A stretch of DNA of 47,413 bases from an uncultured Muribaculaceae bacterium. GTDB taxonomy: Bacteria > Bacillota_I > Bacilli_A > RF39 > UBA660. Both the position numbers and the translations under genes were made by a program. Of the stretch, positions 7,378 through 15,101 are shown one piece after another. The stretch is from positions 1-47,413 of the forward strand of contig CAZJKO010000005.1 of NCBI GenBank assembly GCA_964546995.1, given 5' to 3'. Numbering within the stretch: the stretch's first letter is position 1; each line of letters begins with the position of its first letter. The notes under the pieces were generated by a model. That model was not told the origin of the DNA, did no database searches, and was given only the letters and a program-made list of their open reading frames with translations.

Positions 7378-7641
7378 CTATTTTGTCAAATTATTTTTTA
7401 AAATGACGAGCGTCATGCCAGAATTAAAGTTATCTAATTTATATGTTTCTACTAGTTTATGATGTTTCAATACATCGTGTACTTCCTTTTTTAAAACGCC
7501 AGTTCCGATACCATGAATAATGGCTACTTCTTTATATCCTATTGTGAATTGATCTTCTAGAAACTCTTCGGTTGTGATACGTGCTATTTCTCGATCCATT
7601 CCATGAAGATCGATTTGTGGCATACTGTTACGATAGATCAT
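7378..7641 (-). CDS. Stand-alone Smr/MutS2-type domain protein
   Basis: IDLHG, IIHGIGTGVLK and NSGMT motifs. Confidence 0.9.
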   Translation of the reverse strand: MIYRNSMPQIDLHGMDREIARITTEEFLEDQFTIGYKEVAIIHGIGTGVLKKEVHDVLKHHKLVETYKLDNFNSGMTLVILKNNLTK

Positions 7642-8527
7642 ACTTATTCTTGCTTTCTAAAACATCTTCTAAGTTCGGACAAGAGTATCTTCCTCCAATT
7701 GTCTGCGTCGATAAGGCCCCTGTTATATTGGCAAGTCTCGCTGTTTCTTCTAGGGATTTCTTTTGTAGTAAAAAGTAGAGAAAGGCCCCATGGAAAATGT
7801 CCCCTGCTCCCGTTGTATCGACAGCTTTTACTTTGATGCTAGGAATGATCTTGTAGGCGTCACTTTTTAGAAAACATCCATGTTCTTCTAGGGTGATCAC
7901 GATTTCATTTTGAAAAGCACTTTTTAATTTTTCGTACACTTCGATCAAAGTATCTTGGTTTTCTATGTCGATTTTTGTGTTTGTAAACTCTTCCGCAAAC
8001 TCTTTGGAACAAATGACATAATCGACTAAAGGACATAAAGCGAGCGTTAACGGTCTTACTCTTCCTGCGTCGATAACCTTGAGGGCTTGTTTGTTATGTT
8101 CTATTGCATAAAGCGATGCTTCTAACTCTTCCCCATCGACTAAGATTGCATCAAACGTTCCTTCTGGAAGATATGTGTACTTGATATTTTCTTTTTTCGA
8201 GGTTAAAATCGTCCTGGTTCCCGTTGCGGTGTTTGCAATAATAAAGCTTTCAGCCGTCTGTGTTTTTGCTTGTCGTTCTAAATACGTTGTATCTACCCCA
8301 ACTAATTCCAATTCTTTTAGGATGCTTTCGCCATAAAGATCGTCACCTACTACCCCCGCAAACGATACATCCATTTTCCATTTAGCCAATAGATATGCGG
8401 CATTACTGGCAGGACCTCCACCACACTTGATGATTTCACCAATCCTCGTTTTGGTATTTTCTCTTGGAAAATTCAACACAGGAAGTGTGATATCGTACGA
8501 TGCGTGTCCTATACATAATATTTTCAT
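7628..8527 (-). CDS. PfkB/ribokinase-family carbohydrate kinase
   Basis: GGGPASNAA and VDTTGAGDIFHGAF signatures. Confidence 0.93.
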   Translation of the reverse strand: MKILCIGHASYDITLPVLNFPRENTKTRIGEIIKCGGGPASNAAYLLAKWKMDVSFAGVVGDDLYGESILKELELVGVDTTYLERQAKTQTAESFIIANTATGTRTILTSKKENIKYTYLPEGTFDAILVDGEELEASLYAIEHNKQALKVIDAGRVRPLTLALCPLVDYVICSKEFAEEFTNTKIDIENQDTLIEVYEKLKSAFQNEIVITLEEHGCFLKSDAYKIIPSIKVKAVDTTGAGDIFHGAFLYFLLQKKSLEETARLANITGALSTQTIGGRYSCPNLEDVLESKNKYDLS

Positions 8528-8554
8528 AACATCACCAACTATGACTATTATAGC

Positions 8555-8584
8555 AAAAAAAGAATTATCTTTAAAGACAATTCT
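8555..8584 (-). terminator. Intrinsic terminator following the displaced ppdK-like 3' end
   Basis: AGAATTGTCT-TTAA-AGATAATTCT followed by T tract. Confidence 0.75.
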
Positions 8585-8587
8585 CGT

Positions 8588-8635
8588 TTATTTCACTTCT
8601 TTTTCCTTTTCGCGTATAGCGGCTTGTACCACTGC
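8588..8635 (-). repeat. Degenerate duplicate of the ppdK 3' end (att-like)
   Basis: Encodes AVVQAAIREKEKEVK* versus ppdK AAAQASIREKVNK*; 23/31 nt identity of 8605-8635 with 12479-12509, including exact CCTTTTCGCG. Confidence 0.7.
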
Positions 8636-8714
8636 TTTGTTTGGGAGGCAATTATATATAAATACAGCTTAGATAATGAATTATATTTTTCTACATCCAA
8701 ATAAATTATAACAT

Positions 8715-8738
8715 AAAAACCTAGTTATGAAAACTAGG
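8715..8738 (-). terminator. Terminator after the downstream RNA repeat
   Basis: CCTAGTT-TTCAT-AACTAGG followed by T5. Confidence 0.75.
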
Positions 8739-8743
8739 CATTG

Positions 8744-8781
8744 AATGACTTAGAGCTTCTAAAGTTTTCTAAGCACCACTC
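8744..8781 (-). ncRNA. Putative abiF-associated hairpin RNA, downstream copy
   Basis: 32/38 identical to 9698-9735 with two compensatory base-pair changes; TATAAT 6 nt upstream; terminator just downstream. Confidence 0.7.
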
Positions 8782-8809
8782 ATTAATATTATATTACAAA
8801 TGCTTAAAT

Positions 8810-9679
8810 TTATACATTAGGATAACCCATAATTCTTAAAATATTTTTAATATCTATAGAATTTAGCTTATTATCTAACTTTTTTATTTCTTTTTCTATT
8901 GCTTTTACTAAACTGTTATATTGCCTTTTATCTAAAATAATTTGCATTGCTCTAATCATCATGTATAGATTAGTAAGATTATCTTTTATTACATAATTAG
9001 TATCAATCTCTTTAAATTTTAAAGTATATTTATCTCTATAGCAAAATAAACGATCATTATGAGCACAAATATTTCTAACATTAGTAAGACACTTTAAAAT
9101 TTGTTTTAATAATGCATCTGATATTTTAAATTTTTTTGCTATTATTTGCCTATCGCTTTGCTTTAACAATCCATAATAGCTACTAATAACTCCAAATGTT
9201 AATATTTTAGTTAAAACGAATGGTGGAACAAAGCCATAATTATCTTTATAATGAGTAATTGCAAGATGAATACCATAATTATGATTAATGTCTTCATTTA
9301 TTTTATCAATCAATTTCTTTCTAACCACTAGGTTTACTTTATTATCTAGGTTATTAGCATTTAAATAAGCATCTATACCATAAATATTAGAAATATGATT
9401 TGACATTAATGATTTAATTAAAGATTCAACTTCTAAAGCATATTTTAACATTATTAATTTCAAGTTTTTATCAAATTCATATAAAGCATATATTTCTTCA
9501 AAAGAAACATTTGGAAGGTAATTATTATTAGAATCTTTAAAATTATATTTATAACTATTGATTATAGAATAATATGTATATTTTTCTAATTTTTTCAAAG
9601 CTGATTTCTTATTTTTAATAATTACATTTTTACATTCTAAGTATTTTAATAATTCTTCATTCGTTTTATATTGCTTCAT
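8810..9679 (-). CDS. Abi_2 (AbiD/AbiF) family HEPN protein
   Basis: KQYKT..E.L..L, YYSIINSYK, LYEFD..LK...L...L.VE..IK, HY.....PP, LTFG and HEPN RxxxxH motif RNICAH. Confidence 0.9.
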   Translation of the reverse strand: MKQYKTNEELLKYLECKNVIIKNKKSALKKLEKYTYYSIINSYKYNFKDSNNNYLPNVSFEEIYALYEFDKNLKLIMLKYALEVESLIKSLMSNHISNIYGIDAYLNANNLDNKVNLVVRKKLIDKINEDINHNYGIHLAITHYKDNYGFVPPFVLTKILTFGVISSYYGLLKQSDRQIIAKKFKISDALLKQILKCLTNVRNICAHNDRLFCYRDKYTLKFKEIDTNYVIKDNLTNLYMMIRAMQIILDKRQYNSLVKAIEKEIKKLDNKLNSIDIKNILRIMGYPNV

Positions 9680-9697
9680 ATTACCTCCTGAAATAAA

Positions 9698-9735
9698 AAT
9701 GACCTAGGGCTTCAAAAGTTTCCTAGGCACTACTC
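9698..9735 (-). ncRNA. Putative abiF-associated hairpin RNA, upstream (5' leader) copy
   Basis: GAGTAGTG-CCTAGG-AAACTTTTGAAGC-CCTAGG-TCATT between the promoter and the AGGAGG SD of the abi gene. Confidence 0.7.
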
Positions 9736-9742
9736 GATATAA

Positions 9743-9771
9743 ACTATACTAGATATTAATGGCTTTGTCAA
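9743..9771 (-). promoter_or_regulatory. Sigma-A promoter of the RNA-abi unit
   Basis: TTGACA (9766-9771)-17 bp-TATAGT (9743-9748). Confidence 0.8.
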
Positions 9772-9823
9772 TGATTTTTAAATGATTTCTCAATAATTCT
9801 TACTACTAATTGTACAAAGTATT

Positions 9824-10426
9824 TTATCTTTTAATTATATTATATTGTTCTTTTTTTTCTCTTTTATTTACTGCCATTTCAATATAATCATTAAAATTAT
9901 TTATAAATTCGTCCCATGATATCAATGAGCAATAATGATCCTGATTTCTGTCATACACTCCATTTTGAGGATTATGTTTATAAATTTTCTTTATATTAAA
10001 CATATTTTTTCTTACCAGATTATCAAAATCTTTTACAGTTACTGAACTTGAATTAGAAAAAGTATCTATTACTATAGGCTTGGCTTCTGGAGTATAAACA
10101 GCTATTAATCCATTACACCTATTATTCTCTCGATCATCTAATGAATATTTAATCTCGTCATACATCCAATCGTCATACACATAACTAAAACCATTATAAC
10201 TCTTTTTATGATTAATTGCTTCAGGTGTTAACAATACAATTGTAACACTAGTATATCTCAGTTTATCATATAAATATCCTTTTATTGTATCTTCAGACAT
10301 CATTGATCTATCTTCATTTTCAGAACAATTTATAACTGTTTCAGAATTAGAAAATAATTTACTTAAATAATCCTTATATTTATAACCGTCTTTATATCTA
10401 AAAGAAATAAAAATCCTTCTTGCCAT
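9824..10426 (-). CDS. TIR-domain protein, ThsB/DUF1863-like
   Basis: RRIFISFRYKD, TSVTIVLL and WMYDEI (catalytic Glu position); AGGAGG SD. Confidence 0.88.
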   Translation of the reverse strand: MARRIFISFRYKDGYKYKDYLSKLFSNSETVINCSENEDRSMMSEDTIKGYLYDKLRYTSVTIVLLTPEAINHKKSYNGFSYVYDDWMYDEIKYSLDDRENNRCNGLIAVYTPEAKPIVIDTFSNSSSVTVKDFDNLVRKNMFNIKKIYKHNPQNGVYDRNQDHYCSLISWDEFINNFNDYIEMAVNKREKKEQYNIIKR

Positions 10427-10435
10427 AACTACCTC

Positions 10436-10846
10436 CTATATCAAATAAACTGCTATGCTTGTTATTATACATGTTATATAAAATAAAATCTCAGTTAATG
10501 AAAACATGCACTTAAAAAACGAAATTTTAATTGTATCCTTCATTTCAATTTTTATGTTGTTATAATTCATATCAAAAACTTCGTTATCTTTACAACGTTT
10601 TAATTTTTCATTATAAAACAATCTATATTTTCTCTCCAATTGTAAATAATACGTATCTAAACACCAAAGTACAAATAAAGGGACAACTGTAAACAAAATA
10701 CATCTCTTATCACCTTGATTGCCAGCAAATGAAAAAATTGCTAGCATTACACCAATTCCCCAACCTTTAATCTGGAAAGAATTGTTTGCCATTCGATCAA
10801 TTATGTTCTGTATCATTTGCAAATAAGCTGCTTTATTATTTTCCAT
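10436..10846 (-). CDS. Small membrane protein (2-3 TM), candidate TIR-linked effector
   Basis: IQNIIDRMANNSFQIKGW followed by hydrophobic helices, LDTYYLQLERKYR and a C-terminal helix; 9 bp upstream of the TIR gene. Confidence 0.85.
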   Translation of the reverse strand: MENNKAAYLQMIQNIIDRMANNSFQIKGWGIGVMLAIFSFAGNQGDKRCILFTVVPLFVLWCLDTYYLQLERKYRLFYNEKLKRCKDNEVFDMNYNNIKIEMKDTIKISFFKCMFSLTEILFYITCIITSIAVYLI

Positions 10847-10871
10847 ATTGTACCTCCAATGTTAGTTTTAT

Positions 10872-10900
10872 ATTATATACGAAAAGAAAGTATTTTTCAA
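10872..10900 (-). promoter_or_regulatory. Sigma-A promoter of the TM-TIR operon
   Basis: TTGAAA-17 bp-TATAAT. Confidence 0.7.
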
Positions 10901-10918
10901 TAATTCTAAAGAAAAAAA

Positions 10919-11781
10919 TCACCTTTTTATTTTCATATAATATCCAAGGGCTTCGATAACGTACTTCTCAAGATACCGTTTATCTCTTTTTAATAATTCA
11001 GGTGGTAAAACTGCTTCTATTTTCTTTTTATTAAAAGTTATCTTATCATTTTGATTACCTTTCTTTTCATCTAATATTTTTTCTAGTGAATTAAAATCTA
11101 ATTTATGTTTTTGACTTAGATTTCTAATTCTTATCGCTTGAGCTCTATTAGGTGTTAAATCTTCATATTCTATAGAAGCAAAAAGCAATTTTTGCTCATC
11201 TTTGTTTAAATAAGATAATTCTACTGCTGTTGTTATGCCTAAAGTTAAATAAGTTTTTTTATCATGAATTACAGTATCATCAACAATCTTTAATAATTCA
11301 GGTATTAAATAAGTAAGCCTTATATATCTTCTAACTTGTTCTCTAGATTCTCCACTAACTTTAGCTATCAATTCAACAGAAGTTAACTTCTGCACATCTT
11401 GTGTAGAAGTGTCTTTTTTTTACCTTGGTGTTTAATCGCATCTAATTTCATTTTATAGGCATAAGCTTTTTCTGAAGGCAAAATTTTACTTCTATATATA
11501 TTGGAATCTACCATATAAATGATTGCTTCGTCATCATTTAATTCTTCTATATAGCAACCCGCCTCTTCTACTCCATTTAATTCAAGTGCTAGTTTTCTTC
11601 TATGACCTGATATCAGTTCAAACCTTCCGTTTTCTTTTCTTCTAACTACTAGTGGATTTAATAATCCATTTTCTCTAATACTTGATACAAGTTCATTTAA
11701 TGATTCATCCTTATTAACTTTAAATGGATGATTTTTAAAGGAATCAATATTGCATAATTTTACTTTTACTATTTCTTTCAT
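10919..11781 (-). pseudogene. parB: ParB/Spo0J-family gene split by a -1 frameshift (pseudogene or programmed frameshift)
   Basis: N-part has SIRENGLL.PLVVR and ISGHRR (ParB CTPase box); C-part has GESREQVRRYIRL HTH; the frames join at the A8 tract 11414-11421. Confidence 0.8.
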
Positions 11782-11785
11782 TATT

Positions 11786-12256
11786 TTACTCTCCTTTTAT
11801 TTGAAAAGTTAATTTCCATTCAATATACTCTTCATAACTTATTTCTCGATCTTCTCTTTTTTGTTTCTTTTGTTGCCATTCCTTTATGAAATTACTAATT
11901 AAAGCATCTGCTTTATTTTGAAGTTGTTCTGATGTTGCTAATTCAACATTCATTTTAGGATACAATTCTTCCAACCACATAAATATATAAACTATATCTA
12001 AAGGATTTTTAAAATCATATTTTCCAATAGAACTAGGATTAACTTTTAAAATATTAGCGATTTCAATTAGTCTATCTTCTTTTGGGTTTCTTTCTCCTTT
12101 CTCGTATCTTGTCATATTTACTCTCTTACTTTCTCCAGATAATCCCAATTTTTCTGAAACTTCGTCTTGAGTAAGCCTTCTAAATTGTCTTACAAAGGCA
12201 ATTCTTGATCCTTGTGTTAAATCTTTTAATTTTGGTTTTAGATAAAAATATCGCAT
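11786..12256 (-). CDS. XRE-family HTH regulator with C-terminal domain
   Basis: GSRIAFVRQFRRLTQDEVSEKLG..YEKGERNP; start reassigned to ATG 12256 behind AGGAGGTG. Confidence 0.85.
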   Translation of the reverse strand: MRYFYLKPKLKDLTQGSRIAFVRQFRRLTQDEVSEKLGLSGESKRVNMTRYEKGERNPKEDRLIEIANILKVNPSSIGKYDFKNPLDIVYIFMWLEELYPKMNVELATSEQLQNKADALISNFIKEWQQKKQKREDREISYEEYIEWKLTFQIKGE

Positions 12257-12302
12257 TTTTTCACCTCCTTTTTTATATCGCATAATTCTTATCTTTTCAC
12301 AC

Positions 12303-12333
12303 AAAAAAGACCAAGATGTTTATATCTTAGTCT
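12303..12333 (-). terminator. Intrinsic terminator
   Basis: AGACTAAGAT-ATAAAC-ATCTTGGTCT followed by T tract. Confidence 0.75.
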
Positions 12334-12467
12334 AATTTATATATAAATATCAATTGTGATAGGTTCTTTTAACCTTGCATTTTTACATTCAGGTATTTTA
12401 TCTGAATATCTTAAAATATCATCTTTTGTAATGATTATGCGGGTTAAAAACAATTCATAATAACTTT

Positions 12468-15101
12468 CTATTTGTTTACCTTTTCGCGGATACTTGCTTG
12501 TGCAGCAGCAAGTGATGCGATTGGTACACGATATGGAGAACAAGATACATAAGTTAGTCCTACTTTATGGCAGAAATTGACTGTTTTGGGATCAGCACCA
12601 TGTTCTCCGCAAATACCCATATGCATATTTGGCTTTACTTTTCTTCCTAACGTTACTGCCAGTGCTACTAATTTTCCTGTACCTTTTTGGTCCAATCTTT
12701 GAAATGGATCGCTTTCGAAGATGTGGTTATTATAGTAATCATTTAAGAACTTTCCAGCATCATCTCTTGAAAAACCATATGTTAGTTGTGTTAAATCGTT
12801 GGTTCCAAACGAGAAGAAATCGGCATATTCAGCAATTTCATCCGCTACGAGTGCTGCCCTTGGCACTTCGATCATCGTTCCAATATGATAATTGATTCTT
12901 CTTTCTTTTTCGGTCATAACCTTTTCTGCTTCTTCCCCGATAATCTTTTTAATAAAGAGCAGTTCTTCTTTATCTCCTATTAATGGGATCATCAGTTCTG
13001 GTACAATATCAATATGGTTTTCTTCGCTTACTTCGATAGCAGCTTCTAGTATAGCCCTCGTTTGCATTTTAGCAATTGATGGATACGTAATCGCTAAGCG
13101 ACAACCACGATGCCCCATCATCGGATTAAATTCTTTTAGCGAATCAATTCGCGATACCAATGCTTCATAAGTCATGTTTAATGCTGTTGCTAAGTGACGA
13201 ATTTCGTCCATCTGTTTTGGGAGAAATTCATGAAGTGGCGGATCTAAATAACGAATGGTTATCGTTTTGTCGCTCATGACTTGAAACATTCCTTTGAAAT
13301 CCTCTTTTTGATAAGGTAACAGTTTGGCTAAGGCTCTATTTCGTTGTTCGTTCGTTTCCGCTGTGATCATCTCACGCATGGCAAAGAGGCGTTCTTTTTC
13401 AAAAAACATGTGTTCTGTTCGACATAAACCGATCCCTTCTGCCCCTAGTTCCAACGCTATTTTGGCATCTTTGGGACTATCGGCATTGGCTCTTACCCCT
13501 AAGGTGCGAGCTTCTTTGGCCCATTCCATAAACGTTTCGAAATCTCCACTTATACGGGCTTCTTTCGTTTCGATTTTTTCTCCATATATTAGACCTGTAG
13601 AGCCATCTAACGATAGATCATCTCCTTCATGGAACGTTTGTCCATCTTTGGTTGTCAAGGTTTTCTTTTGCTCATCGATTTCTAAATCGCTACAGCTACA
13701 GATACAACACGTTCCCATTCCTCTTGCGACGACAGCAGCATGGGAGGTCATTCCTCCACGAATCGTCAATATTCCATTGGCGACATTCATTCCTTCAATA
13801 TCTTCTGGTGAAGTTTCAAGACGTATCAACAGCGTATCTTCTATTCCGTTTCGTTTAGCCTTTATAACGTCTTCCTTTGTAAAATAGATCTTTCCTGTGG
13901 CAGCACCAGGCGACGCCGCTAATCCTTTCGCAATGACTTTGCCATTTTTTAACGATTCCTGATCGAACATAGGATGTAAAAGGCTATCTAACTGTTTTGG
14001 TTCTACTCTAAGAAGTGCTTCCTCTTTTCCAATCATTCCTTCTTTCACTTGATCGACCGCAATTTTTACTGCTGCATTTCCGGTTCGTTTGCCATTTCTT
14101 GTTTGTAGGATAAATAGTTTCCCTTCTTCAATTGTGAATTCCATATCTTGCATGTCTTTGTAGTGATTTTCTAAAAGTTGGGCAATGTTTTCAAATTCTT
14201 TATATATGGTTGGCATCTTTTCCTTCAACGTTGTTATGGCTTCAGGGGTTCTAATGCCTGCGACGACATCTTCGCCTTGGGCATTGATCAAGTATTCTCC
14301 AAATAGGGCTTTTTCTCCTGTAATGGGATTTCTAGTAAAGGCTACCCCTGTACCTGAATGTTCTCCTTTGTTTCCATAGACCATTTCCTGGATATTTACA
14401 GCAGTTCCCCAATTAGATGGAATGTCGTTTAGTTTGCGATATGTTACAGCACGTTCATTGTTCCACGAACGAAATACGGCTTTGATTGCTTCTAATAGTT
14501 GTACTTTGGCATCTTGAGGAAAATTTTCTTTGGCAATTTCGAAATATGCTTGTTTGTAACGTTCCGTTACCTCTTTCATATCATTACTTGTCAATTCAAT
14601 ATCTAACGCTTTTCCTTTTTCTTTTTTGATCTCATCTAACAAACGTTCAAACGTCGATTTGGGAAAACCCATGACAACATCGGCATACATTCCGATGAGG
14701 CGGCGATACGAATCGTAGACAAATCTTGGGTCGTGCGTTGTTTCGATCAAGCCGTCTACGACTTCATCGTTCATCCCAAGATTTAGAATGGTATCCATCA
14801 TTCCTGGCATCGAAGCTCTCGAACCACTTCGAACAGAGACTAAAAGAGGATTGTTTTTATCTCCCATCGTTTTCGCCGTTTCTTGTTCTAATCTTTCTAA
14901 TTCTTTTAAAATTTCTAATTCTATGTCACGATTGATTACACCATGATCTTCATAATACTTTAAACATGCGTCCGTCGAGACGGTAAACCCCCTTGGGACA
15001 GGTAGACCGATGTTGGTCATTTCTGCCAGATTGGCCCCTTTTCCACCGAGCACTTCTCTCATCTCTTTGTTTCCTTCATGAAACGAGTATACGTATTTCA
15101 T
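12468..15101 (-). CDS. ppdK: Pyruvate, phosphate dikinase
   Basis: LGGKGANLAEM, GGMTSHAAVVARG (phospho-His), GIGLCRTEHMF, FFSFGTNDLTQ. Confidence 0.98.
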   Translation of the reverse strand: MKYVYSFHEGNKEMREVLGGKGANLAEMTNIGLPVPRGFTVSTDACLKYYEDHGVINRDIELEILKELERLEQETAKTMGDKNNPLLVSVRSGSRASMPGMMDTILNLGMNDEVVDGLIETTHDPRFVYDSYRRLIGMYADVVMGFPKSTFERLLDEIKKEKGKALDIELTSNDMKEVTERYKQAYFEIAKENFPQDAKVQLLEAIKAVFRSWNNERAVTYRKLNDIPSNWGTAVNIQEMVYGNKGEHSGTGVAFTRNPITGEKALFGEYLINAQGEDVVAGIRTPEAITTLKEKMPTIYKEFENIAQLLENHYKDMQDMEFTIEEGKLFILQTRNGKRTGNAAVKIAVDQVKEGMIGKEEALLRVEPKQLDSLLHPMFDQESLKNGKVIAKGLAASPGAATGKIYFTKEDVIKAKRNGIEDTLLIRLETSPEDIEGMNVANGILTIRGGMTSHAAVVARGMGTCCICSCSDLEIDEQKKTLTTKDGQTFHEGDDLSLDGSTGLIYGEKIETKEARISGDFETFMEWAKEARTLGVRANADSPKDAKIALELGAEGIGLCRTEHMFFEKERLFAMREMITAETNEQRNRALAKLLPYQKEDFKGMFQVMSDKTITIRYLDPPLHEFLPKQMDEIRHLATALNMTYEALVSRIDSLKEFNPMMGHRGCRLAITYPSIAKMQTRAILEAAIEVSEENHIDIVPELMIPLIGDKEELLFIKKIIGEEAEKVMTEKERRINYHIGTMIEVPRAALVADEIAEYADFFSFGTNDLTQLTYGFSRDDAGKFLNDYYNNHIFESDPFQRLDQKGTGKLVALAVTLGRKVKPNMHMGICGEHGADPKTVNFCHKVGLTYVSCSPYRVPIASLAAAQASIREKVNK

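Follow-up and report, generated by a model that had tools for sequence, protein, structure and literature searches.

A probable type III-like AbiF toxin-antitoxin cassette with conserved RNA hairpins on both sides of the toxin gene

The window, which is the whole 47,413-nt stretch of DNA that was analysed, carries on its minus strand an abiF-type open reading frame (ORF), the gene of a putative phage-defence toxin, lying between two copies of one RNA hairpin, an upstream copy (U) on its 5′ side and a downstream copy (D) on its 3′ side. Judged from its sequence, the locus is probably a type III-like AbiF toxin-antitoxin cassette in which two RNA ligands are split between a 5′ leader and a 3′ small RNA. 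The analysis establishes the anatomy of the cassette, its conservation and the fact that pairing of the sense-strand RNA is under selection. The layout is unusual for a recently described RNA-antitoxin system; it is incremental to a known mechanism and is not a new kind of system. The parts of the cassette are the following.

9743..9771, minus strand: cassette promoter, with -35 TTGACA (9771-9766), a 17-nt spacer and -10 TATAGT (9748-9743); 11/12 matches, the best in the region
9692..9738, minus strand: U hairpin, with its 38-nt repeat core at 9735-9698; covariance model 70.8 bits, E 2.3e-16
9684..9700, minus strand: U-rich tract (AUUUUUAUUU) directly 3′ of the U hairpin, then Shine-Dalgarno AGGAGG (9689-9684); read from the sequence
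8810..9679, minus strand: abiF-type gene, 289 aa, Abi_2/HEPN, with RNICAH at residues 202-207; ORF and Pfam
8788..8816, minus strand: candidate internal promoter, with -10 TATAAT (8793-8788) and a weak -35-like TGTATA (8816-8811); read from the sequence
8738..8784, minus strand: D hairpin, with its 38-nt repeat core at 8781-8744; covariance model 69.7 bits, E 4.9e-16
8709..8739, minus strand: intrinsic terminator, with an 8-bp stem and a 5-nt loop (hairpin 8739-8719) and a T run; terminator scan

Most of this layout had been described in a first-pass annotation, and it held on re-examination. Two 38-nt direct repeats flank the gene and are identical at 32/38 positions (84%); a full TTGACA-17-TATAGT precedes the upstream copy; each copy begins 6-7 nt past a -10 box (7 nt for U, 6 nt for D); the downstream copy is closed by the terminator; and the protein keeps the HEPN motif RNICAH from residue 202 onward. 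The 289-aa product can be placed by its sequence in the AbiD/AbiF (Abi_2) HEPN toxin family. It matches Pfam Abi_2 (PF07751) with 151.3 bits against a curated cut-off of 25.6 (E 4.7e-44) and PADLOC AbiD with E 4.6e-53, and its residues 2-216 are homologous to chain A of PDB 8VZ6, the PbAbiF protein of the PbAbiF-AbiFr system of a Prevotellaceae bacterium (E 1.9e-16). The HEPN motif R-(N/H/D)-x3-H is found as RNICAH, and R-N-x3-H is present in all 21 rows in which the ORF was found (the window and 20 loci). Identity to AbiFCd of the C. difficile phage phiC2 is 28.6%.

In the U hairpin, an outer helix (P1) is followed by a GU bulge and a 7-bp helix (P2), which carries a conserved 13-nt loop (AAACUUUUGAAGC); D has the same architecture with a longer P1 (UGAGUG/CAUUCA). 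In this motif, P1 has 4-6 bp, the 2-nt bulge is on the 5′ side, P2 has 7 bp and the loop 13 nt. Four of the six differences between the two cores had been taken for two compensatory swaps in the stem, and so they proved to be: CCTAGG/CCTAGG in U versus CTTAGA/TCTAAG in D, that is, C-G to U-A and G-C to A-U, at alignment columns 13-35 and 17-31. The selection on RNA structure proposed from these swaps is borne out by strong stem covariation among 44 distinct hairpin copies, aligned at 13 pairs (572 cells). Pairing is found in 92.7% of the cells, against 16.8-50.9% when the partners are slid; two-sided changes occur in 6 of the 13 pairs (62 cells), and the seven pairs of P2 have no unpaired cell. 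The covariation score was reached by 0/500 shuffles, a statistic that is inflated by the relatedness of the sequences. G-U pairs make up 83/572 cells by the sum of the pairing table; on the other strand these cells would be mismatches, so that the structure belongs to the sense RNA. RNAalifold recovers the P1 and P2 helices, and the apical loop (AAACUUUNGAAGC) is invariant or nearly so across the aligned copies. The U and D copies of one locus have a common type of P1 (GAGUGG...UCAUU or AAUUGG...UCAAUU) and differ in P2 pairs, which would be the pattern expected if both copies serve one protein.

The support for the hairpin fold is covariation, not energy. Single-sequence folding sets neither the U copy (z 0.04 for 66 nt, -1.87 for 38 nt and -0.16 for 60 nt) nor the 38-nt core of D by itself (z -0.31) apart from shuffles; the D hairpin together with the terminator reaches -20.6 kcal/mol (z -3.09). 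A mini-helix CUU/AAG within the loop was considered as a third helix but lacks support, as it shows no covariation and its sole variant, in the U copy of locus L015, breaks the pairing.

The signals around the two copies are also conserved. Before U, most homologous loci have TTGACA or TTGACT, a 16-18-nt spacer and TATAnT. The U hairpin begins approximately at the predicted transcript start, and the Shine-Dalgarno sequence is 4 nt before the ATG and 8 nt from U. A T-rich tract follows U in every locus displayed in the alignment of homologous loci, and the terminator scan detected no canonical site from U to the ORF. Read from the sequence, this tract (AUUUUUAUUU in the window) might be a weak terminator, and it may have a role in attenuation or ribosome occlusion. 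Before D, the TATAAT is perfect: it matches at 6/6 positions in 23/25 rows (the window and 24 loci) and stands 6 nt before the hairpin in 23/25. Among the 21 rows with the ORF found, 17 have the D hairpin 28 nt after the stop codon. The -35 of the candidate D promoter (TGTATA) matches at only 3/6 positions and overlaps the last codons and the stop codon of the ORF; given this weak -35, D could be produced solely by read-through and processing. The terminator at 8739-8719 is the sole terminator-like site in 8400-10000 (shuffles have a mean of 0.2), and the homologous loci have a terminator at the equivalent position behind D. Because no terminator lies between the ORF and D, D would be part of the abiF mRNA, and the terminator behind D would end this mRNA as well as the D unit.

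The hairpin was also compared with the Rfam abiF motif, as the first-pass annotation had suggested, and here the known model did not apply. RF03085 matches neither copy: there is no match at E<=1 in 7500-12600, at E<=10 in 8690-9790 or at E<=10 in the whole genome, with a gathering threshold of 37 bits and positive controls scoring 37.6 bits (phiC2) and 51-63 bits (eight Bacteroidota loci). The hairpin is therefore an RNA motif different from Rfam abiF. The RF03085 consensus has a GC-rich 6-bp stem, a 1-nt bulge, a 3-bp stem and a 6-nt internal loop on the 3′ side, and the PbAbiF-type canonical motif has a 6-nt bulge on the 3′ side, in contrast to the 2-nt bulge on the 5′ side and the conserved 13-nt loop of the cassette hairpin. 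Matches to other Rfam families (snoRNAs, CRISPR-DR40/50, AMV stem-loop) are far below thresholds and were set aside as chance. In the eight canonical abiF-motif loci, the RNA is solely upstream of the gene, with no downstream copy at E<=1; a single motif is present in 7/8 and a tandem pair, 138 nt apart, in 1/8. U has the same position as Rfam abiF, directly 5′ of the Abi_2 gene, and the canonical-motif Bacteroidota loci (n=7) likewise have the ncRNA directly before the ORF and then a U tract, whereas D has no counterpart in the canonical loci examined. P2 and the invariant CUU/AAG mini-helix together may have a loose two-tier likeness to RF03085.

Thirty homologous loci were gathered, 25 of them with a full-length match (56-90% protein identity). 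U is present in 25/25 and D in 24/25 of the full-length loci; the exception is L003, which has an intact ORF with U only. At least one genome can therefore dispense with D, provided that the L003 copy is not already decaying. In a sample of 151 evenly chosen genomes of the family, 13 protein matches of at least 47% identity were found; all 12 complete genes lie within a hairpin pair spaced by 950-975 nt, and the remaining one is truncated at the end of its contig. The locus set and this sample overlap, so the two counts of loci with both copies are not independent. An AbiF-type HEPN toxin with a leader copy and a second, terminator-closed unit, as first proposed from the window, is thus kept down to 47% protein identity.

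These counts bear on the question of whether D belongs to the antitoxin at all. U might be the only antitoxin, as in single-motif AbiF loci, and D a duplicated 3′-UTR element for stabilisation or termination, or a decoy, with no transcript of its own and unneeded for neutralisation. The single motif directly upstream in 7/8 canonical loci, the intact gene of L003, the weak -35 before D and the presence of D in the mRNA anyway, with no terminator from the ORF to D, all agree with this. However, D is kept in nearly all full-length loci and in every complete gene of the family sample, it has the same invariant loop and compensatory changes of its own, and a perfect TATAAT is placed at a fixed 6-nt distance from it. 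A mere stabiliser would need no P1 and loop specific to the protein type. We therefore regard U as the sole antitoxin as unlikely, and prefer the reading with two RNA ligands.

The hairpin is linked exclusively to this AbiF clade. A covariance model, trained partly on the two copies of the window, finds exactly two matches in the 1.07-Mb genome to which the window belongs (E 2.3e-16 and 4.9e-16), both flanking the abiF-type gene, which answers an earlier suggestion to search with such a model. It has matches in 34/151 family genomes. In a class-level sample of 151 genomes, 5 have a match, and among the 137 outside the family there is only one, a weak one (E 2.2e-4). Four loci from the Abi_2 clades that come next in the family, at 36-40% identity, have no flanking direct repeat of at least 24 nt, nor do they or any other Abi_2 clade examined match the hairpin model (best E 0.21).

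A mechanism is in print for related systems. According to the available text of PMC12373285, an ncRNA that binds AbiF directly neutralises its toxicity, and a homodimer of PbAbiF binds two copies of its ncRNA; PMC12737573 and PMC13064643, as far as available, are in agreement. The background given in the first-pass annotation, namely that AbiF nucleases form type III-like systems with RNA antitoxins and have been proposed as Cas13 ancestors, is likewise in print in the accessible parts of PMC12373285 and PMC12737573. RCd22-AbiFCd of the Clostridioides difficile prophage phi027/phiC2 (Saunier et al. 2025, PMC12373285) is described there with a single Abi_2/HEPN gene with RNxxxH, as in the cassette. 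It also has two hairpin motifs of ~35 nt per locus, both needed and co-transcribed with the toxin gene, a first motif near the transcript start of a sigma-A promoter, and a logic of two RNA motifs to two protomers; the cassette likewise has two copies, the first near the predicted transcript start, and would share the co-transcription and this logic. Its motifs are in tandem upstream, within one ~100-nt RNA that has a terminator before the ORF. In the cassette, no canonical terminator follows the upstream copy, and the second copy comes after the ORF and has a -10 box to itself. RF03085 recognises the phiC2 motif (37.6 bits) but neither of the cassette hairpins. By this comparison, the RNA ligands of the AbiF homodimer are likely to be placed here on either side of the gene and not in tandem upstream.

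As in type III systems, direct repeats of structured RNA are found beside the toxin gene with a promoter at the repeat start; both repeats follow a -10 box by 6-7 nt, and the arrangement is bracketing rather than tandem. In ToxIN/AbiQ (Blower et al. 2012, PMC3401426, available text), a direct-repeat RNA antitoxin is also located beside an endoribonuclease toxin gene, with the promoter set by the repeat start and a role in abortive infection, which the cassette may share. In contrast, the fold of ToxN is unrelated and not HEPN, and the repeats are tandem pseudoknot arrays set off from the toxin gene by a terminator. In type III systems, such a terminator sets the ratio of RNA to toxin; in the cassette, the only clear one follows D, and the tract after U might be a weak one. 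An exception is reported for toxIN of Lactobacillus jensenii SJ-7A-US, in which repeats and terminator are downstream of the toxin with their own predicted promoter. A toxin gene flanked on both sides by a single repeat is not described in the available portion of PMC3401426.

We infer transcription from both promoters, binding by AbiF, neutralisation, autoregulation and a trigger, in the following scheme. The U hairpin would be the extreme 5′ end of the abiF mRNA, followed by the U tract and the ribosome-binding site, and the D hairpin would lie 28 nt past the stop codon with its own -10 box before it and the sole terminator after it. Since U is at the 5′ end and the only terminator follows D, the main promoter would yield hairpin-ORF-hairpin transcripts, and possibly also short hairpin-only transcripts that stop at the U tract. 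A small RNA of ~70 nt, comprising the D hairpin and the terminator, would come from the internal promoter and outnumber the toxin. Whichever copy it binds, AbiF would contact the conserved loop and the P1/bulge region and be kept inactive; at U, binding could also reduce its own translation. When the RNA supply is lost, for example during phage infection, the nuclease would be freed. A bolder version, which we consider unlikely, makes the two hairpins ligands of one homodimer that could clamp the 5′ and 3′ ends of its own mRNA, giving closed-loop neutralisation and autorepression in cis with the D small RNA as a buffer; recombination of U with D could also excise the toxin gene and leave 'solo antitoxin' genes that persist as immunity to re-addiction.

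It is also conceivable that the hairpins are cis-regulatory and do not bind AbiF, with U working as a transcription attenuator or as an operator of translation, D belonging to a compound terminator, and both answering another factor such as a host or phage protein. The U tract after U and the Shine-Dalgarno sequence 8 nt away suit such a function, the ncRNA of C. difficile acts also via premature termination (PMC12373285, available text), and a phage protein binding the AbiD1 mRNA reportedly activates its translation (PMC13064643, in the part available). On the other hand, RNA and protein interact directly in the neutralisation of two AbiF systems, in the accessible published text. Hairpins without an intact gene also occur, and gene-less promoter-hairpin-terminator units (L040, L044, L050 and L051) fit a trans-acting RNA better. 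A purely cis-regulatory role is thus improbable, and the two-ligand cassette remains the preferred reading.

The whole cassette has moved among genomic contexts. Beyond promoter and terminator, 21 upstream and 23 downstream flanks were compared, and each side sorts into 13 mutually unrelated groups. That the repeats act as DNA, serving a small mobile cassette for recombination or insertion, with an incidental RNA fold, might be read from these at least 13 contexts and from single hybrid hairpins that look U-by-D recombined by sequence (the absence of an adjoining recombinase counts neither way), but it is very improbable, because the 83/572 G-U cells are strand-specific, the compensatory changes preserve pairing and not sequence, promoter and terminator signals are exactly placed around the copies, and the invariant part is the loop and not the stem.

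AbiF-ncRNA systems were reportedly first characterised in 2025 and have been proposed as the root of Cas13. The study of PbAbiF-AbiFr with PDB 8VZ6 is that of Zilberzwige-Tal et al. 2025. The AbiF literature, in its available parts, places the RNA upstream of the gene, and positions across AbiF clades may already stand in Zilberzwige-Tal et al. 2025 or its supplements. The clade described here shows a second class of RNA motif, apparently co-evolved with an AbiF lineage, in which a putative effector-binding hairpin was duplicated and dispersed about the gene and one copy has a promoter signal of its own, and in which gene-less hairpin units remain in many genomes. Under the bolder reading with one homodimer, the locus would formally consist of an effector-binding hairpin repeated on either side of an insert (repeat-insert-repeat), in a relative of the Cas13 ancestor. 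The cassette may show how effector-binding RNA repeats spread inside a locus. It could be a natural system for separating the cis (leader) and trans (small RNA) roles of an RNA antitoxin.

Some observations concern relatives outside the cellular genomes and further sequence collections. A search of viral contigs with the AbiF-type protein found no relative; in phage records, the best matches are Abi genes from phages of Streptococcus and Clostridioides, at 27-33% identity, and the one from Streptococcus phage IPP38 has no abiF motif, no flanking repeat and no match to the hairpin model. Among the single hairpins, hybrids with a U-type promoter and a D-type tail resemble products of U-by-D recombination in their sequence. 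A contig from a probable DNA run that joins 8795 to 9695 with 30 other letters was taken to represent a hairpin from elsewhere, either another organism or another locus, rather than this locus with a deletion. Assembled contigs of relatives (90% likeness) from two mouse-gut metatranscriptomes and two probable DNA runs, which as assemblies are silent on transcription, starts, ends and strand, cover 8703-8944, 8741-8800 and 8740-8796 (D) and 9589-9741 (U).

The abiF-type gene is enclosed by two direct repeats, an upstream copy in its leader (U) and a downstream copy (D), and the features of this cassette are as follows.

9771-9743, minus strand: U promoter TTGACA-17-TATAGT, the best promoter-like site of the region
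9735-9698, minus strand: U repeat, 38 nt (repeat search and direct reading)
9679 to 8810, minus strand: abiF-type ORF of 289 aa, between the two repeats (ORF call)
8793-8788, minus strand: TATAAT before D, a perfect -10 box
8781-8744, minus strand: D repeat, 38 nt (repeat search and direct reading)
8739-8719, minus strand: terminator-like site after D, the sole such site in 8400-10000

The first-pass annotation had described this locus correctly on all points. The flanking 38-nt repeats are identical at 32 of 38 positions, and four of the six differences are two compensatory base-pair swaps in a 6-bp stem (CCUAGG/CCUAGG versus CUUAGA/UCUAAG). U starts 7 nt past its -10 box and D 6 nt past TATAAT, the terminator closes the downstream copy, and the HEPN motif RNICAH is kept at residues 202-207 of the protein. 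The 289-aa protein has hits to Pfam Abi_2 (E 4.7e-44), to the PADLOC AbiD model (E 4.6e-53) and, over residues 2-216, to 8VZ6, a solved Abi family protein (E 1.9e-16). According to three papers, AbiF in two published relatives is a HEPN RNase whose toxicity is neutralised by direct binding of a small RNA, and the PbAbiF homodimer binds two RNA copies (PMC12373285, PMC12737573, PMC13064643; primary source Zilberzwige-Tal et al., 2025, through these).

The two-copy layout is real and well conserved. A search of genome contigs found 30 related loci, whose best segments are 37-93% identical; almost all come from small genomes of uncultured gut Bacilli. The count of copies around homologues, which the first-pass annotation had proposed, gave U in all 25 full-length loci and D in 24 of them. 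The locus that lacks D (L003) has an intact ORF followed by unrelated sequence directly past the stop codon. The gene is broken in two of the 25, by an in-frame stop (L004) or a frameshift (L014), and both hairpins are kept there. Only N-terminal gene fragments stand behind the U copy in L026, L027, L029 and L030; L025 (37% identity) was masked upstream and left out of the judgement of hairpin copies. An even sample of the family (151 genomes), whose counts overlap with those of the 30 loci through shared species representatives, gave 13 protein matches at ≥47% identity. All 12 complete ones (11 open, one with two stops) are precisely enclosed by a pair of hairpin matches spaced 950-975 nt, and the 13th is cut by a contig end.

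The signals around the copies were surveyed in the window and 24 loci (25 rows), 21 of which had an ORF found by script. Most rows have TTGACA or TTGACT, a 16-18-nt spacer and TATAnT before U; after it come a T-rich tract and a ribosome-binding site, 15-20 nt before ATG in the 21 rows with an ORF. The distance from stop codon to D is 28 nt in 17 of these 21. TATAAT before D is complete (6/6) in 23 of 25 rows, and its distance to the hairpin is 6 nt in 23 of 25. The corresponding -35 has only 2-3 of 6 bases and overlaps the last codons of the gene. Judged from these signals, an independent D transcript is moderately likely.

Selection for the RNA fold is nearly certain. The hairpin alignment has 54 copies and 47 gap-free columns, and structure was counted on its 44 distinct rows. 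The outer helix P1 pairs columns 3-8 with 38-43 and is followed by a 2-nt bulge and the inner helix P2 of 7 bp (columns 11-17 with 31-37). Pairing is found in 92.7% of 572 cells, against 16.8-50.9% when the partners are slid by 1-3 columns, and six of the 13 pairs (62 cells) show changes on both sides. None of 500 shuffles reached the observed covariation score or percentage paired; the number of pairs changed on both sides (matched by 61/500) and the further pair types (495/500) are not distinctive. Every P2 cell is paired in the 44 rows; pair 8-38 is disrupted in 14, most of them U copies reading GAGUAGUG. RNAalifold independently returned P2, four P1 pairs and, within the loop, a mini-helix of 3 bp; the last never varies in the alignment and is unsupported as a third helix. 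By our own sum of the pair table, G-U accounts for 83 of 572 cells, so the fold belongs to the sense strand, that is, to RNA of the gene's polarity. Little or no variation is seen across the alignment in the 13-nt loop AAACUUUNGAAGC. U and D of one locus agree in P1, which reads GAGUGG...UCAUU in the 63-90% clade and AAUUGG...UCAAUU in the 56% clade, and differ in P2 pairs; the common P1 type may reflect two ligands tracking one protein. Single-sequence thermodynamics adds little support: the folding energy of U is no better than that of shuffles (z 0.04, -1.87, -0.16), and the one fold that is distinct from them is that of D plus terminator (z -2.95 and -3.09).

In the own genome, a covariance model built from the hairpin (R1) has just two matches, U and D, both of which were in its training set. 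It matches 34 of the 151 genomes of the family sample and 5 of 151 in a class-wide sample, with one weak match (E 2.2e-4) among the 137 genomes of the latter outside the family; as far as searched, the feature is confined to one family of small-genome gut Bacilli. With filters off, R1 has no match (best E 0.21) at other Abi_2 genes, namely the second paralogue of the own genome, four loci of the 36-40% clade, two of the 33-35% clade, the C. difficile prophage phiC2 and the Streptococcus phage IPP38. Comparison of 21 upstream and 23 downstream flanks places the cassette, from -35 to terminator, in at least 13 unrelated contexts on each side. The mobile unit is the whole cassette, both hairpins included.

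The canonical abiF motif (Rfam RF03085), suggested by the first-pass annotation as a check, did not match U or D at any threshold tried; the positive controls scored 37.6 bits (phiC2) and 51-63 bits (eight Bacteroidota loci). Its consensus combines a GC-rich stem of 6 bp with a second stem of 3 bp and, on the 3' side, an internal loop of 6 nt, and differs from the window hairpin in sequence and layout. Seven of eight canonical loci have a single motif and one has two, 138 nt apart. The seven ORFs found there are all Abi_2; at the eighth locus the 400 nt searched gave none of 150 aa. The motif precedes the ORF by 8-17 nt (CGUUUUUUAUU) in six of these seven and by 96 nt in L107. Thus, U is the positional counterpart of the known AbiF ncRNA, U tract included. 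No copy was found behind the gene in the eight canonical loci at E up to 1, and no counterpart of D is described in the AbiF literature covered. In RCd22 of C. difficile, two abiF motifs stand in tandem 5' of the gene, followed by a terminator (PMC12373285). Among type III loci, toxIN of Lactobacillus jensenii SJ-7A-US, of another family, is reported to have repeats and a terminator downstream of the toxin, and none with one repeat on either side of the toxin is reported in the sections of that source covered (PMC3401426). The hairpin is a new RNA motif in a new layout within the recently established AbiF-ncRNA kind of toxin-antitoxin system, a novelty judged on literature in which PbAbiF is described at second hand.

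The observed anatomy, conservation, covariation, linkage and mobility of the cassette can be read as an RNA-antitoxin system, and as a whole this reading is probable. Transcription would start from the main promoter at the U hairpin; some transcripts may stop at the U tract, and the remainder would continue past the ORF and D up to the terminator. An extra small RNA of ~70 nt (D and terminator) would come from the internal -10 box. An AbiF dimer would be kept inactive by contact with two hairpins, made through the conserved loop and P1/bulge, and AbiF on U, adjoining the ribosome-binding site, could repress translation. When the RNA supply falls, the nuclease would be freed.

The family scan also gave 20 places with a single hairpin. 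Each has one strong match with filters off, beside two noise hits (E 0.54 and 0.98). In five, tblastn found only the N-terminal part of AbiF: residues 1-67 (L043), 1-39 (L054), 1-74 (L056), 1-97 (L057) and, up to the contig end, 1-168 (L045). L043 and L057 are apparently the same contigs as L029 and L027. The other 15 have no AbiF match at E up to 1e-3, and in five of them, by eye, a terminator follows the hairpin at once with no abiF gene nearby.

About 1401-1447 in L041, L044, L050 and L051: hairpin of the gene-less unit
671-717 in oriented L040: hairpin of the gene-less unit

These five may be solo antitoxin genes. A full TTGACA promoter precedes the hairpin in L040, L044 and L050, and hairpin and terminator of L044 fold at -25.0 kcal/mol (z -4.10). 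L044 and L050 join a U-type 5' side with promoter to a D-type tail and could be products of U-by-D recombination that removed the toxin gene. Three genomes (L046, L048 and L049) have an orphan hairpin (1401-1447 or 121-167), a common conserved downstream sequence and no abiF match: one chromosomal site has retained an orphan copy in different genera. Extra hairpins also occur a few hundred nt behind complete cassettes in L009 (2865-2911), L014 (2582-2628 and 2710-2756) and L021 (2532-2578). No intact abiF gene follows them; in L009 there is just a 40-aa ORF, and the next ORF in L021 resembles, by its sequence, ribosomal protein S21. They are probably relics of neighbouring cassettes.

The genes upstream of the cassette and the other Abi_2 genes of the genome are the following.

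9824-10426, minus strand: ThsB-like TIR protein (PADLOC ThsB1 E 1.3e-75; Pfam ThsB_TIR E 5.8e-07)
10436-10846, minus strand: 136-aa membrane protein (PADLOC PDC-M50A E 6.2e-38)
10919-11395, minus strand: 158-aa protein, no family assigned
11383-11781, minus strand: ParB_N protein
11786-12304, minus strand: HTH (XRE-type) protein
G000:C28:5862-6752 (L036 1201-2154), minus strand: second Abi_2 gene, 317 aa (Pfam E 7.2e-43)
G000:C34:11393-11575, at a contig end of the own genome: partial third Abi_2 match (E 7.2e-7)

The first two, directly upstream of the cassette, jointly correspond to the candidate defence system PDC-M50, which places the AbiF cassette in a small defence island. The three genes at 10919-12304, between the defence genes and a pyruvate phosphate dikinase-like gene, may be remains of a mobile element that brought the island. 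The second Abi_2 protein is 32% identical to the window protein and keeps RNLCAH. A match of ~30-36% identity in 150 of 151 family genomes suggests a vertically kept core paralogue rather than a mobile defence gene. This gene has a short leader without the hairpin and overlaps a downstream HtrA-like Trypsin_2/PDZ protease gene by 11 nt (1201-1211).
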